Shown piece by piece: positions 6,744-15,501 of a DNA stretch of 64,000 nucleotides. A program made the translations under genes and the position numbers. The stretch is from contig CAXXFF010000003.1 in NCBI GenBank assembly GCA_963676835.2, forward strand, positions 160,001 to 224,000, in the 5' to 3' direction. The stretch comes from Marispirochaeta sp. GTDB taxonomy: Bacteria > Spirochaetota > Spirochaetia > JC444 > Marispirochaetaceae. Position 1 is the stretch's first letter, and each line of letters starts with the position of its first letter. The notes below the pieces were generated by a model, which saw only the letters and a list, made by a program, of their open reading frames with translations, searched no databases and was not told the origin of the DNA.

Positions 6744-6827
6744 GCGGCGGTGGTGAAATTGGTAGACACGCTAGCTTGAGGGGCTAGTGGCCGTTAGGCC
6801 GTGCTGGTTCAAGTCCAGTTCGCCGCA
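6744..6827 (+). tRNA. tRNA-Leu(GAG), CCA not encoded
   Basis: Acceptor GCGGCGG/TCGCCGC, D-loop TGGTAGAC, anticodon arm CTAGC-TTGAGGG-GCTAG, long variable arm, T-arm GGTTCAAGTCC. Confidence 0.95.
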
Positions 6828-6830
6828 CTA
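6775..6830 (+). repeat. attL core, 56-bp direct repeat (3' half of tRNA-Leu)
   Basis: Identical to 14963-15018; begins at the anticodon loop. Confidence 0.95.
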
Positions 6831-7034
6831 CCAAACTCCTTACACTGTAAGGATTTATAAAAGTGACGGAAAATTGTGCTAATGGGGTACGCTCCTTGAT
6901 GGTGGCCGAAAGGTGGCTGAAATATCAAGGAGGTAGCCCATGGCTACAAAAACACTTTTCCATTTTCCTACGATTGATATGCTGGAGAGCTTCGGGGGGG
7001 GTCCTAAGACTACCTATGTCCTCGGAGGTGAAGC

Positions 7035-7316
7035 ATGAATTTTCAAGATCAAATCGAAAAAGCAAACAACACTCTACTCGAAAACACGAGCAGTGCCGTT
7101 CTTCTTATCGGTAAGCTAAAAGTGATAGCCGATTGGCTTGATCGAGCTTCTCAAGATTACCCCAGACCAATGGAACATTTGGACGTGCATTTATCAGGCG
7201 CATCTGAGCTGATTAAAGGGGTTATTACTGATATCGATGCATTGTGGGATCGAAACGACTTTCAAATTCACATTGATAAATCCGACTTTCCCAAAGTGCT
7301 GGAGGTAGTAAAATGA
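7035..7316 (+). CDS. Hypothetical protein coupled to the integrase
   Basis: Strong RBS GGAGGTG; ATGA overlap with int. Confidence 0.6.
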   Translation: MNFQDQIEKANNTLLENTSSAVLLIGKLKVIADWLDRASQDYPRPMEHLDVHLSGASELIKGVITDIDALWDRNDFQIHIDKSDFPKVLEVVK

Positions 7317-8527: not shown

Positions 8528-8598
8528 TTATTTACTACTTAAAACCATACCCACGGGCCATTTACACATTGTAGGTGGCCCAACTGGTGGCTGGGCAT

Positions 8599-8681: not shown

Positions 8682-9005
8682 TTACTTTTCTATTCTCCGT
8701 TCATACGCTCCACGGATCGCCTCTGTCAGAGCGATTGATCCGCGAGTCTCGATGAACTCCTGAGGTTTGCCGTCGATACGGTCATAGATATATTTGATTG
8801 CAGTTATATCTCCCGAGAGGGCAAGATCCCACAATTTAGCAGCCAAAGCTTGATTACGTGACATCATTTTCCGTTCACCGGTTTTAGGGTCAATGTACTC
8901 AACGTCTCGCTTCTTGGCATGTGATCCCAGAATGTCAGAAAGGCCCTTTCCCTTTCGGGGGCGGCCTTTTCGGTTTATGTTCTCGGGATGTTCTATAAAT
9001 CCCAT
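8682..9005 (-). CDS. Terminase small-subunit-like protein (DUF5681-like)
   Basis: NINRKGRPRK N-terminus and ALSGDITAIKYIYDRIDGKP motif seen in phage TerS-position proteins; ATG 9005 with AGGGGGG RBS. Confidence 0.65.
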   Translation of the reverse strand: MGFIEHPENINRKGRPRKGKGLSDILGSHAKKRDVEYIDPKTGERKMMSRNQALAAKLWDLALSGDITAIKYIYDRIDGKPQEFIETRGSIALTEAIRGAYERRIEK

Positions 9006-10279: not shown

Positions 10280-10957
10280 TCAATCGTTTACTATTAAACA
10301 TCCGGGGGTTACGCGATTTTCCATACGTATCCGCCGTTCTAAAACATCGAGCTCCTTGAGTTCCTTCTCAAGCTCCTCAATCTCCTCGTAAAGCGCTTCC
10401 CTTTGTTTTGCTTCCCGGATAGCACGCTCCACGGCCTTCATGTATTCATCCGGATCGCTATCACCAAGTAGCAGCCCTTTAGCATGAACTACCGGCATAA
10501 GAAAATCTTTTGCGTCACGGATAACACGAGCCCCTTCATTTGCGGGGATTGAAACACAGGAAACTTCCAGTAAATCAGCTTCCGTCCATACCCTGGTTCC
10601 ATTCTGCTTTGTCCACTTCTTGGGCTGAAAGCCTACCGAAAAGCTGGTAAGGAAATCTTCTTCATACAGCTTTTCAAGCTCTTTCCCCAGGTCCGTGTCC
10701 GCAAACACAATGTCCAGATTCAATGATTTGGAAGTGATTTCACCTCCTACGGCCTTACCTACCGGGGGTATATTCTGGTCATGCCCCCAGAGAACAACAG
10801 GGTTATTCTTGAGATACCGCGGGAGTGATTTTGTCCAGGCGGTGGGAAGTATCACTTCACCATCCCGGTCAACGTCTGAAGTTGATGCAACGATCCGGAA
10901 AACCTTCTTGCTTCCCTTCTCGATTACGTCATCGACTCCAGCCTTAAACCTAATCAT
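10280..10957 (-). CDS. HK97-family prohead protease
   Basis: VDRDGEVI, VLWGHDQ, SFSVGF, LLEVSCVSIPAN; ATG 10957 with GAGGAGGA RBS. Confidence 0.92.
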   Translation of the reverse strand: MIRFKAGVDDVIEKGSKKVFRIVASTSDVDRDGEVILPTAWTKSLPRYLKNNPVVLWGHDQNIPPVGKAVGGEITSKSLNLDIVFADTDLGKELEKLYEEDFLTSFSVGFQPKKWTKQNGTRVWTEADLLEVSCVSIPANEGARVIRDAKDFLMPVVHAKGLLLGDSDPDEYMKAVERAIREAKQREALYEEIEELEKELKELDVLERRIRMENRVTPGCLIVND

Positions 10958-11185: not shown

Positions 11186-13108
11186 TCAAGTATTAACAAC
11201 CGACTTACTGTCAATTAACAACTCACCGTTTTTTGTCATTTTGAAAAGCGCTTTTCCCACTTCATTGCCATTCAAATCAATATGGAAATGGTAAGTTCCG
11301 CCTGTTGCCGTTTTCGCCTGGTCTTCGTTCTGGATGGAAACGCGCTCCCCGGAGGCAACCCCGATCATGTATGAATCATCCCGGTAGCCTTCCGGGACTG
11401 TGAAGTCACCGCCAGATTTATAACTGGGAACCGGGGTGCTCTGAATGGCGGCAACCTGTGCAGCACCTATCCCTGCAGCGGCTACCGACAAACCTATGCC
11501 AGCAAACCCGCCAGGGTCGGCAAGGAAGCCGATAATGGCCGCAGCTGTATCAACTGTCGCCTGAAGCGTTCCCAGGGCCTTGGCGCGCTCTGACTGCTTT
11601 CTGGCGATCTCTTTTTTCTTGTTTTCAAGGCGTTCCTCTGCAGCTTCCCTTTCGGCTGTCCCTTCCTTGGTCGCTTCAACTTCTGCCTTCAGGCGGTTAA
11701 GCTCTTCCTGCTCTGCATTTGAGGTTATGGTGTTCAGGGATCCGAAAAAGCTTCCCGCCATGCCTGACAGAGTGCTGTAGTAAAATTCCATTTCAGAATG
11801 CCGTTCAGCTAGTATCCGCGCTTCTTCAGCGGCGACAGCTTCGGCAGCGGATATCTGCTCAAGCCTCCACTGTTCAATCCAGTCAGATTTCTGGGACCAA
11901 AAATTCATCTCTGTATCAGCCAGCGATTGAGTGGCATTCTTCATTTGGACAAGCTTTTCGTTTAGCTCCTCGAGTACCGCTCGCACTTTTGGGCCGTCTT
12001 CAAATGATTCAAATAATTTTATTTCCTGCTCAAGTGCTTTTTGAGCTCCCTCTGCCGTACGCGCATAGGCCTCTTCCAGGGCATCAAGATTAGCCTGTCG
12101 CTGGGCCTCTTTGGCAGCTTTGTCCGCTTCCTGAGCCGCAAGTACTTCAGCTGCAGCTCGTTGCTGTGCTGATGCAACAGCAGCATAATCATCCGAAATA
12201 GCAAGCTGTGCCTGGCGGCTTCTCATTTCGGCAAGACGCTGCTCTTCTTCGCGGAGCTGTCTGTTGACGTTTATCCCCCGCATCTTCTGGGTATTAAGCT
12301 CGGCAATGCGCATTACCTGCCGCTCAATTGCAGTTGTGAGTGTTGTTGTATCATCAGCTTCGCCTGTAAGGATCTTCTGCAGGGCCATTTCACCAGCGAG
12401 AAGGTTGTTTACCTCGGTAAGCATTTCGGTAAAAGCTCTCCGGAGAGGAGTCATACCCCGGGCTACATACTGGCCAATAGCCTCCTGGGTATCCCCGATG
12501 GTGTTCTGGTACTGCAGGTAAGCTCCGGAGGCAGTATTTGCTTCCTCCTGGGCTACCAGGAAAGCGGCAGCAAGCTGACGCTCTGCAATAGCAGCTTTCT
12601 CTGTTTCGGTGGCTGCATTTTTTACAGCAGGCATGTACCGGTTCATCATGTCGTAATTGCCCTGCTGGGCATTTACCGTTGCTTTTATCGCTGCTTGAAG
12701 ATCGACGCCGAAGGCCTTTGACAGCCCTATGGCGTCCTTGGTTGCCTGCTTGGCGGCTTCAGCCGAGAGTCCGGCAGAAACAGCATACTGCTGCAGTTGG
12801 ATTGAAGCTTCATCGCCGACTGTGGTTATCCCCTGCAGTTCTGAGGCAAAATCCTGCATAGCTCCAGAGACTGCTGCCGAATACTTTCCAGTAGCCCGGA
12901 GTGATGCATTCAAAAGGGCAACACTTTTCTCCTGAACAAAGAAGGCTTGTTCAGCTTTCGCCAGCTGCTTAGTGACTGAGACAAGCGCAGCGCCTGCGGC
13001 GGCGATACCGGTAGTCATTAAGGCTACGCTTTTCATGTAGTCTTTGACGCTTTTCTGTGATTTCTTTGTCTCTGTTAAAATATCAACTTGAACTGTATCT
13101 TTTGCCAT
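11186..13108 (-). CDS. Phage tail tape-measure-like protein (640 aa)
   Basis: Ala/Glu/Gln-rich helical protein; N-terminal QDFASELQGITTVGDE; hydrophobic stretch near C-terminus followed by SYKSGG...GERV. Confidence 0.8.
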   Translation of the reverse strand: MAKDTVQVDILTETKKSQKSVKDYMKSVALMTTGIAAAGAALVSVTKQLAKAEQAFFVQEKSVALLNASLRATGKYSAAVSGAMQDFASELQGITTVGDEASIQLQQYAVSAGLSAEAAKQATKDAIGLSKAFGVDLQAAIKATVNAQQGNYDMMNRYMPAVKNAATETEKAAIAERQLAAAFLVAQEEANTASGAYLQYQNTIGDTQEAIGQYVARGMTPLRRAFTEMLTEVNNLLAGEMALQKILTGEADDTTTLTTAIERQVMRIAELNTQKMRGINVNRQLREEEQRLAEMRSRQAQLAISDDYAAVASAQQRAAAEVLAAQEADKAAKEAQRQANLDALEEAYARTAEGAQKALEQEIKLFESFEDGPKVRAVLEELNEKLVQMKNATQSLADTEMNFWSQKSDWIEQWRLEQISAAEAVAAEEARILAERHSEMEFYYSTLSGMAGSFFGSLNTITSNAEQEELNRLKAEVEATKEGTAEREAAEERLENKKKEIARKQSERAKALGTLQATVDTAAAIIGFLADPGGFAGIGLSVAAAGIGAAQVAAIQSTPVPSYKSGGDFTVPEGYRDDSYMIGVASGERVSIQNEDQAKTATGGTYHFHIDLNGNEVGKALFKMTKNGELLIDSKSVVNT

Positions 13109-13136: not shown

Positions 13137-13613
13137 CTACCCTGCAAGTACTTGCGTGCGATTGGTGGCCGTGGTGGTGGCTATTTTCCGATGAAATGCC
13201 AATTTTTCCCTGTAATACACCCCCCAGGTCTCTTTGTTGGAATCGTCCGGAGCTGCATTGAATGATAAATGTTCATAATAGGGAAATTCACAGGAGGGGC
13301 AGCAATCTTCAAATCCTTGACGATACTGGAAGATTTTTCCGCATGCTGGACATTTCACCTGAGTGCCAGGGTGCTGATACCGGACTACGTTTTTCTGTTT
13401 GAAAAAGATTTTCTTTTCTTGAGCAGCCTCAAAAACTTCTTTAACAGAAACGACCTTGTATCGATTGCTATGGTGTTCAATCAGGGAGTCTTTCAAGCTA
13501 TCACGCTCAGAGTCGGTGATAGTAATTATGCGGTCCCGAATTTCTGCCATCGAAAGGCGAATAGTATTCGGGTAATATTCTTTAAGATATTCTAGAAATT
13601 CCTTGCTCGTCAT
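13137..13613 (-). CDS. Zinc-ribbon protein, possibly a replication accessory factor
   Basis: CPACGK...CCPSCEF; directly follows and overlaps the initiator gene. Confidence 0.55.
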   Translation of the reverse strand: MTSKEFLEYLKEYYPNTIRLSMAEIRDRIITITDSERDSLKDSLIEHHSNRYKVVSVKEVFEAAQEKKIFFKQKNVVRYQHPGTQVKCPACGKIFQYRQGFEDCCPSCEFPYYEHLSFNAAPDDSNKETWGVYYREKLAFHRKIATTTATNRTQVLAG

Positions 13614-14094
13614 CGCTCCCCTCCCCAGGTGATCGACTATTGTTCATAAGATCATCAATTGAAAAATCTTCTCCGCCCCATTGTTGAGGGGTACTGTTAT
13701 TGGTACCTGTTCCCTGGTAATGTTCGGGCGTATCCATTACGCTCCCAGGGTGACACTCTTTCGCCCCGGTAGTGTCATCGTTACGCAAGGGGGGTGTCAT
13801 CATTACGCGCCCCGGTATGTAATAATCATTTGACCGGTTATATTGTTTACCAGTTTTCCCGGTAGCTAATCGTTGTCTAACCTTAATTTCACCCTTTTCT
13901 TCAAGACTTCTTATGCAGCGCTGCACAGTTCGTCTGCTCAGCTTGGTAATCTTTACAAGCGATTCTATTCCAGGAAAACACTCTCCTTGCTTATTGGCGT
14001 AGCGTAATAATCCGATCAAAACGAGAGTTTCACTCGAGCTCAAAGCCGCATTTTCCATCAGTGCATTCGGCACTACGAAATACCTACCTGACAC
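13582..14094 (-). CDS. HTH replication initiator (lambda-O/DnaD-like N-terminus)
   Basis: LSSSETLVLIGLLRYANKQGECFPGIESLVKITKLSRRTVQRCIRSLEEKG; internal 22-bp iterons; likely GTG start 14094 just after the xis stop, GGAG RBS. Confidence 0.75.
   Translation of the reverse strand: MSGRYFVVPNALMENAALSSSETLVLIGLLRYANKQGECFPGIESLVKITKLSRRTVQRCIRSLEEKGEIKVRQRLATGKTGKQYNRSNDYYIPGRVMMTPPLRNDDTTGAKECHPGSVMDTPEHYQGTGTNNSTPQQWGGEDFSIDDLMNNSRSPGEGSDDEQGISRIS
13728..13815. repeat. Four 22-bp iteron-like direct repeats
   Basis: Units start at 13728, 13750, 13772, 13794; core GTGTCATCRTTACGC. Confidence 0.75.
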
Positions 14095-14095
14095 A

Positions 14096-14287
14096 TCAAA
14101 CTTTCTCCACGCGGCCACGGCCCAAGAGCCACTCTTCAAGCTCCTGAACATCAAATACAACCCGTCTACCCCATTTGTAAAATGGAACGGTTTTCGCGCT
14201 GGTCGCATTCCAGAAAAATTGTTTACTGAGGCCGTAACGAGTTACAGCCTCAGAGACACTGATCAATTCTTTTCCCTGGATCTGCAT
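14096..14287 (-). CDS. Excisionase/AlpA-like HTH protein
   Basis: ISVSEAVTRYGLSKQFF...VPFYKWGRRVVFDVQELEEWL. Confidence 0.8.
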   Translation of the reverse strand: MQIQGKELISVSEAVTRYGLSKQFFWNATSAKTVPFYKWGRRVVFDVQELEEWLLGRGRVEKV

Positions 14288-14789: not shown

Positions 14790-14962
14790 GTTTGATGTTT
14801 TATAAAGATTTTGTATTGGTGGCCAAAAGGTGGCCGGGGTGGTGGCTGTTTTTTATTAGGTAAAAAAGAGTAAACATTAACAATTTGCGTAATTCTTTGT
14901 TATGTGGTATATTATAAAAACTAATACAGCCAACTAAAGGCTATTAAAGGCAGCATTATTAC

Positions 14963-15018
14963 CTTGAGGGGCTAGTGGCCGTTAGGCCGTGCTGGTTCAA
15001 GTCCAGTTCGCCGCACTA
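14963..15018 (+). repeat. attR core, 56-bp direct repeat
   Basis: Identical to 6775-6830. Confidence 0.95.
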
Positions 15019-15019
15019 T

Positions 15020-15059
15020 AAAAAGACCATTCGACTTTTGTCGGATGGTCTTTTTTTTT
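15020..15059 (+). terminator. Rho-independent terminator (original tRNA terminator)
   Basis: AAAAAGACCATTCGAC-tttt-GTCGGATGGTCTTTTTTTTT. Confidence 0.85.
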
Positions 15060-15392
15060 GGCGCGAACTGGACTTGAATAGAGTGAGCGCCGACCGATCA
15101 GGGAGGAAAAGCAGGCATGGATGCCTGCGGCAGCGAACGGCAGGGGCCCGGAAGGAGGAAACAGGATGTTTCCGACTGGAGGGCAAGTCCAGCCCTCAGA
15201 CTAAGATCAACTTCCAAACCCAGATGGTCTTTTTTTTCTGCGCGAACTGGACTTGAAACGGAGTTTCGGCGCGACTGAATAAGGAGCGCAAATCGACAGG
15301 ACGTCGATTTAGAAACGCAGGCAGCCTGCAGGGAGGAGACACGATGTCGACGACCGGAAGGCAAGGCCAGCCCCCAGAGTAAGATCAACTTC
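15046..15392. repeat. Two tandem ~179-bp tRNA-linked repeat units
   Basis: Shared ATGGTC-T-tract-GCGCGAACTGGACTTGAA (15061, 15240) and CAAG.CCAGCCC..AGA.TAAGATCAACTTC ends. Confidence 0.75.
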
Positions 15393-15501
15393 AAGAAACA
15401 GAGTCTCTTTATTTATTATCTTAAACCTGCAATAATTATTTGTCTCAGGCACATGTTCCTGAAACCGACCGGCTTATGTGCACGAAATCGGGAGTAGAAA
15501 T

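Follow-up and report, generated by a model that had tools for sequence, protein, structure and literature searches.

Gene content of the integrated element

The 64,000-nucleotide stretch of Marispirochaeta sp. DNA analysed here (hereafter the window) contains an element of 8,188 bp located between two att cores at a tRNA-Leu(GAG) gene. The core is a 56-bp sequence derived from the 3′ part of this tRNA gene, and its two copies are identical and spaced by 8188 nucleotides. Between them lie genes for an integrase, an excisionase-like protein, replication and head formation, together with a gene whose 640-residue product resembles phage tape-measure proteins (TMPs) (Table 1). Judged from its genes and boundaries, the element is likely a phage satellite.

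Table 1. Features of the integrated element and their positions in the window
Feature	Position	Strand	Evidence or remark
tRNA-Leu(GAG), integration target	6744..6828	+	
Left att core of 56 bp, same sequence as right copy	6775..6830	+	Repeat search
GGTGGC tandem repeat, left end	6901..6917	+	
93-aa ORF, no family	7035..7316	+	Family scans
Tyrosine integrase, 404 aa	7313..8527	+	PF00589, phrog_1; R, HxxR, H and Y motifs visible
GGTGGC tandem repeat, 47 bp past integrase stop	8574..8591	+	
Likely small terminase (DUF5681 protein), 107 aa counted from ATG at 9005	8682..9005	-	PF18932
HK97-type major capsid protein, 379 aa	9130..10269	-	PF05065, phrog_10 and TIGR01554 above cut-off
Prohead protease S78	10280..10957	-	PF04586, phrog_80; longest ORF to 11092, likely start 10957
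GGTGGC tandem repeat abutting TMP stop codon	11168..11185	+	
Predicted tape-measure protein (TMP), 640 aa	11186..13108	-	Relatives in phage tail operons, tree, model
Zinc-ribbon protein, 158 aa, replication module	13137..13613	-	Shared with sister elements
GGTGGC tandem repeat, 56 bp upstream of TMP start, in zinc-ribbon gene 3′ end	13164..13181	+	
Replication initiator, O-like winged helix	13582..14208	-	PF13730, phrog_270; longest ORF
Excisionase-like HTH_17 protein, 63 aa	14096..14287	-	PF12728 above cut-off; TIGR01764 below
Probable regulator, 145 aa	14291..14728	-	
GGTGGC triple repeat, right end (starts 14818, 14829)	14818..14846	+	
Right att core, duplicated tRNA-Leu 3′ part	14963..15018	+	Repeat search

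Some of these assignments are more firmly based than others. The protease falls just below the cut-off of TIGR01543 (56.9 versus 59 bits), and the true start of the replication initiator probably lies further inside 13582..14208. In a prophage of another genome (G661), a DUF5681 gene directly precedes the genes for the large terminase (TerL) and the portal, and this single case of synteny suggests that the DUF5681 protein is a small terminase (TerS). For the 145-aa probable regulator, a lead points to a ribbon-helix-helix protein (score 0.86, with RHH_3 on 44% of members), and a weak lead points to the zinc-ribbon protein as a G39P-like helicase loader (score 0.82, with the family on 11% of members). 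The same 158-aa gene, located upstream of the TMP gene, was also considered as a tail chaperone and rejected by profile search; it is shared with sister elements in which no TMP is seen and belongs with replication.

The TMP gene follows the replication genes in their orientation after 28 bp, and beyond it come an AT-rich gap and then the head genes, an arrangement that makes early expression plausible. Its placement between the replication genes (13137-14208) and those for the S78 protease and HK97-type capsid protein agrees with the sequence-only reading of this DNA that preceded our analysis. A promoter-like sequence (TTGACA-17-TATCTT) is present at 14776-14748 near the regulator gene; promoter-like sites overall are not above chance (9 versus 10.4), and the scans for promoters and terminators both remained at chance level. 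Among sequencing runs, one was listed that contains this DNA, and none of RNA. Just to the right of the element, at 15044-15414 of the window, there are two repeats spaced by approximately 178 bp in which the tRNA T-arm sequence recurs in inverted orientation, and look-alikes of these repeats are found elsewhere in the same genome and in relatives.

Identification of the 640-residue product

The reading frame of the TMP gene is intact, with 0 internal stop codons, and its ATG is preceded by an AGGAG site at 7 nt. Alanine makes up 17% of the 640 residues, and the predicted structural model is almost entirely helical (mean pLDDT 78.5, pTM 0.42). The protein comprises a conserved N-domain (approximately residues 40-240), a coiled-coil middle part and a small C-terminal domain with strands, and its hydrophobic stretches span residues 27-46 and 535-555. 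A long, alanine-rich and nearly all-helical chain with hydrophobic segments is what is expected of a TMP. The sequence-only reading had described a 640-residue helical protein with TMP-like motifs at both ends. The open frame and the model bear out the first part of this description, and both the conserved N-domain and the C-terminal motif are indeed retained, although the protein itself matches no curated TMP family directly and the assignment is founded on its relatives.

When scanned directly, the protein had 0 matches in Pfam, 0 in NCBIfam and 0 to named TMP families of PHROGs, where it matched only two families of unknown function and, weakly, a spanin. Its relatives number 7,999 at E<=0.001 and 89 at E<=1e-30, and a named TMP PHROG family was matched (E<=0.001) by 31 of 36 scanned homologues, which were drawn from the best 150 relatives. 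The best full-length relative is the 626-aa TMP of the viral locus L045, which matches TMP_2 only below the cut-off. The two proteins are 48% identical over residues 13-458 of the window TMP and 71% identical over residues 40-240. In the L045 operon, genes for TerS, TerL, portal, scaffold, capsid, neck, tail terminator and major tail protein are followed by two small genes without a name at the chaperone position (129 and 98 aa), the TMP gene, a gene at the Dit position and fibre genes, with the chaperone and Dit labels given by gene position and not by family match. Homologues at five further loci (L005, L009, L011, L019 and L195) also hold this canonical TMP slot, which runs from the tail tube and chaperone genes to those of the distal tail. 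Furthermore, in a tree of the N-domain, the window TMP groups with the proteins of L045 and L153 (SH-aLRT 99); this tree was built by a quick method, without bootstrap or a one-clade test, after four duplicate loci had been removed. Because its relatives match TMP families and the L045 relative occupies the canonical siphophage slot, we accept the predicted 640-residue product as a siphophage-type TMP.

Comparison with known folds, a check that had been proposed along with the sequence-only reading, gave a divided result. Among viral structure models, the named top matches are mostly TMPs, whereas the PDB fold search with the TMP model returned 0 matches at E<=0.001. A sequence search of the PDB yielded weak, composition-biased matches to TMPs mixed with generic coiled coils, and these were not relied on. 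One apparent relative of identical length (640 aa), L043, was set aside because it is a coiled-coil match from the chromosome.

Over 201 codons compared with L045, synonymous differences are saturated (pS 0.94) and pN is 0.215. The saturation indicates that L045 is a relative and not a recent donor, and the value of pN at saturated pS indicates long constraint on the domain, which refers, given this saturation, to the whole path between the window TMP and L045 and not to the satellite branch alone. The middle and C-terminal parts of the protein have best relatives (P0012 and P0128) that differ from those of the N-domain, and the window TMP is therefore a mosaic.

Search for other virion genes and for a helper

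The element was searched in six frames with profiles built from the phages of this TMP family for two tail chaperones (12 and 20 members), the tail tube (43 members) and a Dit-like protein (22 members). Nothing was found at E<=0.3, a result that holds for chaperones related to those in the profiles, as an unrelated one could be missed. This empty search agrees with the earlier statement that no tail tube or chaperone gene is located near the TMP gene. Scans of the ORFs of the element against Pfam, PHROGs and NCBIfam also detected no portal, TerL or head-tail connector.

In the genome that contains the window (G000, 97% complete), the TerL and portal profiles PF03237, PF03354 and PF04860 have no match. 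When the proteins of approximately 100 phage loci were compared with this genome, matches among virion genes were confined to its two TMP-bearing elements, and these genome-wide searches found no helper prophage. The TMP profile matched 0 of 6 genomes of the same family, and viral contigs searched with P0012, the TerS-like protein and the capsid protein yielded nothing. Terminase_6N was matched in two of five congeneric genomes. One of these loci resembles a small element that lacks tail genes; the second was considered as a helper and rejected, as its tail genes are podophage-like and it has no relative of the TMP. A small integrated element with a large terminase gene is present in genome G404 (L241, 2126-11424), in which capsid and tail genes were not recognised.

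Related elements with and without a TMP gene

An element of the congener G405 (L189) is integrated at the same tRNA-Leu site. Its integrase, excisionase and zinc-ribbon protein are 62%, 81% and 44% identical to those of the window element, and it carries an SPP1/P22-type capsid gene, a probable scaffold gene and a KAP NTPase gene, with no TMP gene. The element of G406 (L190), which is cut by a contig end, is similar to L189 and has a capsid type different from that of the window element. A backbone of integrase, excisionase, replication and zinc-ribbon genes is common to the window element and these compact sisters. The TMP gene is regarded as accessory because no TMP is seen in the sister elements that share this tRNA site. 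Thus, elements with this backbone but no TMP seem to exist, and the head module appears to be swappable as well. A different small element is found at the same tRNA-Leu in G404 (L191, 1523-8211), with an integrase, a primase-like gene and a lone Clp-type head protease; no capsid gene was recognised in it.

The genome of the window also contains a second element that combines a TMP gene with a capsid gene (C1:136393-147756; L002 and L003). This C1 element is approximately 11.3 kb long and is located at a tRNA-Val(TAC). It carries genes for an integrase, a helicase, a 688-aa TMP with a GTG start, two small head-region genes, a capsid protein of the phrog_29 type, which differs from the HK97-type protein of the window element, and a Clp-type protease, which the head protease of L191 resembles. 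Portal and TerL genes were not found in this element. The N-domain of its TMP is 68% identical to that of a different phage TMP, from prophage L197. The 634-aa TMP P0012 is 65% identical to the C1-element TMP in the N-domain and 54% identical to the window TMP in the C-terminus. A third integrated region of the genome (C1, approximately 91000-103700) lies at a tRNA-Thr next to an IS; its ORFs, inspected by eye, include integrase, repressor-like, methyltransferase-like and ParB-like genes, and no virion genes were seen among them.

More widely, the TMP profile matched 38 of 401 genomes sampled from the phylum and 43 of 401 sampled from the class, two overlapping samples that both include the genome of the window, and 75 matched loci were fetched. 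Five of these resemble small elements. L030 spans 8.7 kb between 49-bp repeats at a tRNA-Gly and has integrase, rep, capsid and TMP genes, and L036 spans approximately 11 kb at a tRNA pair with integrase, TMP and primase genes. L041 has rep, DUF5681, possible chaperone and TMP genes, with no att site found, and L198 has integrase, helicase, capsid and TMP genes on a stretch where the contig ends. L006 (G174:C70) is a circular contig of 9.5 kb with genes for a primase, ParA, a recombinase and a CI-like repressor and a TMP gene that runs across the contig ends, and is possibly a plasmid-type satellite. The remaining fetched loci mostly resemble tail operons, as judged from ORF maps that were annotated in part, and some are cut by contig ends.

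For six of the seven small-element TMPs, the best BLAST match is a non-satellite locus; the exception is L036, whose best match is the C1 element. The N-domain tree, which took in the three of seven satellite TMPs that aligned well enough, requires three separate origins for these proteins. Such repeated capture of TMPs argues against the view that the elements are decayed prophages.

A strand-polarised GGTGGC repeat

GGTGGC repeats are found at both ends of the element and at three internal sites that mark module borders, namely after the integrase gene, at the TMP stop codon and upstream of the TMP gene (Table 1). The pattern GGTGGCC-N4/5-GGTGGC occurs 6 times in the window, always within the element and on one strand, where chance would give 0.02, and elsewhere in the genome it has one looser match. 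Strand counts for GGTGGC[CT] are 12 versus 1 in the window element and 9 versus 0 in L189, with resampled means of 0.98 and 0.42, respectively. In L189 (2498-10342), single copies are present at the places equivalent to the post-integrase and TMP-upstream sites, and one lies between the capsid and cargo genes. The C1 element has its own repeat pair at both ends. A role of GGTGGC as a Chi-like signal of the host was rejected on the genome-wide count (1652 observed versus 1699 expected), and the genome-wide strand skew of the motif is mild (929 versus 675).

From their position, the repeats near both ends of the element are likely arm-type sites for the integrase. A more elaborate proposal, which we regard as unlikely when all its parts are taken together, is that the integrase or the regulator encoded by the element binds GGTGGC and that the repeat delimits morphogenesis modules that can be exchanged. 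In some strains, the backbone would then carry an HK97-type head with a captured TMP, and in others an SPP1/P22-type head with NTPase cargo, and the lone TMP without a chaperone would be the minimal unit that reprograms the helper's tail core and DNA entry while leaving the length unchanged.

Comparison with known satellites

TMPs of satellites are already published for PLEs, EPIPs, some cf-PICIs and SUSP1 satellites, and the comparisons made here draw on the accessible parts of the cited reports. The PLEs PLE1, PLE4 and PLE11 of Vibrio cholerae, whose helper is ICP1, carry their own TMP, and chimeric tails have been shown for them (PMC12987554, 10.1101/2025.01.29.635557). Virions of PLEs contain this TMP, and transduction falls by 96-99.9% when it is deleted (PMC12987554). 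PLEs rely on the helper capsid protein and contractile tails, whereas the window element has its own capsid and protease genes and a siphophage-type TMP. They also encode a tail chaperone, and PLE11 additionally a baseplate hub, neither of which was found in the window element. The PLE TMP is approximately 20% identical to that of its helper, whereas the N-domain of the window TMP is 71% identical to a phage TMP, that of L045. The combination that defines PLEs (tmp plus tac, the PLE gene set and ICP1 as helper) is not that of the window element, which has a different host and gene set.

EPIPs of Mycolicibacterium aichiense likewise carry genes for a small terminase, a capsid protein, on which the report is inconsistent, and a TMP, without other tail genes (PMC12822802). 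They measure 11 kb compared to 8.2 kb for the window element, and their tails are much longer than those of the helper, whereas the window TMP gives no sign of a length change. Also, EPIPs have a serine integrase, a head-to-tail adaptor and a stopper. The window element has a tyrosine integrase and no connectors that could be found, and it therefore falls outside this group. EPIPs furthermore induce a helper prophage resident in their host, and the searches of the genome that contains the window revealed no such prophage.

With PICIs and cf-PICIs (PMC10085698), the window element has in common an integrase, small DNA-binding proteins, a replication gene, a capsid gene, a small terminase gene and its location as a chromosomal island. 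The full PICI gene set (integrase, regulator, replication, capsid-related and small terminase genes) is present, with TerS called from one syntenic homologue. Tail genes are 'forbidden' in the models for both PICIs and cf-PICIs (PMC10085698), and the window element does carry one. It was filed as PICI-like and not as a PICI because of this TMP. PICIs are also induced and packaged by a helper phage, for which the searched genome gave no candidate. In addition, cf-PICIs require portal, TerL and head-tail genes (PMC10085698), none of which were found in the window element. Putative tmp genes are nonetheless reported in PLE-like elements and some cf-PICIs (PMC12987554, Extended Data Fig. 10). The SUSP1 satellites of E. 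coli (10.64898/2026.10.15.759431) are likewise integrated and have a TMP among very few structural genes. These satellites combine the TMP with a baseplate protein and have no capsid gene, whereas the window element combines it with capsid, protease and TerS-like genes.

No report of TMP-bearing satellites in spirochaetes was found in the literature searched, a body of work in which most subscription papers were beyond reach, and the string 'spiroch' is absent from the main texts of PMC12987554 and PMC10085698. What this analysis adds is a predicted chaperone-less example from the spirochaetes, together with GGTGGC repeats that are polarised by strand and mark its module borders.

Proposed role of the satellite TMP

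The element probably forms chimeric particles, although considerable room for doubt is left, in which the satellite capsid and TMP would be combined with the portal, large terminase, tail tube, chaperones and tail tip of a helper. What is observed is the homology of the TMP, its open frame, the att repeats, the gene set and the failure to find other virion genes; from these we infer the assembly steps. Chimeric tails are the best reading because the TMP is the sole tail gene found in a satellite-like element and because PLEs provide a precedent. Presumably, an incoming siphophage would trigger excision and replication of the element, and the TerS-like protein would steer the large terminase of the helper onto satellite DNA. 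The satellite capsid protein and protease would form heads around the helper portal, and the satellite TMP, coated by helper chaperones, would replace the helper TMP in some of the tails.

As a rule of thumb, each TMP residue accounts for approximately 0.15 nm of tail. By this rule, the 640-aa window TMP corresponds to 96 nm and the four closest phage TMPs (626, 643, 645 and 649 aa) to approximately 94-97 nm; three other phage TMPs that were checked have 675-757 aa. A change of tail length by the satellite TMP is not supported by this comparison, which is indirect, as it takes phage relatives in place of the actual helper. The sequence-only reading had proposed chimeric tails of the satellite's own length. 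The chimeric tails survive as the best reading, and the distinct length is not supported. The likely gain for the satellite would be control over tail assembly or DNA entry.

Several observations speak against chimeric particles. No TMP is seen in the sister elements, and the family therefore does not seem to need one. Neither a match for a helper in the same genome nor a TMP relative in the six genomes of the same family was found, and PLEs supplement their TMP with a chaperone, and in PLE11 also with a hub, both of which the window element appears to lack.

It is possible, but unlikely, that the TMP instead poisons helper tail assembly, as the sequence-only reading had also considered, and serves as a dominant-negative decoy, which would soak up helper chaperones or tail-tip complexes and lower helper yield without entering satellite particles. 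Its conserved terminal regions are kept and yet no chaperone of its own was found, and its spacing behind the replication genes would allow the early expression that such a decoy might use. Moreover, the variable region of L189 contains a KAP NTPase, a family that is often defence-linked. However, a decoy need not be full length, and the window TMP is about as long as the TMPs of related phages. None of the known tail inhibitors is a TMP; Rta, for example, which is TMP-directed, has 80 aa. A satellite that depends on helper tails would also harm itself in this way.

We give still less weight to the improbable reading that the element is a decayed prophage, or that its TMP is a phage-derived passenger without a present role. 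The lack of a detectable helper in the genome and the TMP-less sisters would be compatible with such a remnant, and the capsid, protease and TerS genes could be left over from a prophage. However, the att cores are preserved in full on either side, none of the ORFs is interrupted, and the searches revealed no remains of tail or portal genes. The int-xis-rep-Zn backbone is common to compact sisters, and the gene order, with the TMP gene upstream of the protease and capsid genes and TerS last, differs from that of related phages. In addition, the same pairing of TMP and capsid recurs with separately derived TMPs.

The least likely alternative is that the TMP is mainly a conduit for injection of satellite DNA that evades TMP-directed defences or superinfection exclusion by the helper, a role compatible with chimeric particles and a rival to them only if selection acts on entry and any control of assembly is a by-product; its mosaic middle and C-terminal parts would be expected under diversifying pressure, but mosaic TMPs are usual among phages anyway. 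TMPs are indeed targets of defence, as the SNIPE system associates with the TMP (PMC13190303) and Rta is TMP-directed; Ltp is reportedly another such case.

Implications for satellite biology

For PLEs, the way in which the satellite TMP is selectively incorporated and the benefit of this for the satellite are stated as open in the PLE report (PMC12987554). With a TMP for which no accompanying chaperone or hub was found, a phage-like TMP length and sister elements that lack the gene, the window element is a stripped-down case and offers a clean test of these questions. If its TMP is incorporated, then a TMP alone would suffice, and the benefit would not be one of length. Satellite models that forbid tail genes would exclude such elements. 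The finding extends TMP-bearing satellites to the spirochaetes, where the gene has been captured repeatedly, including twice in one genome.
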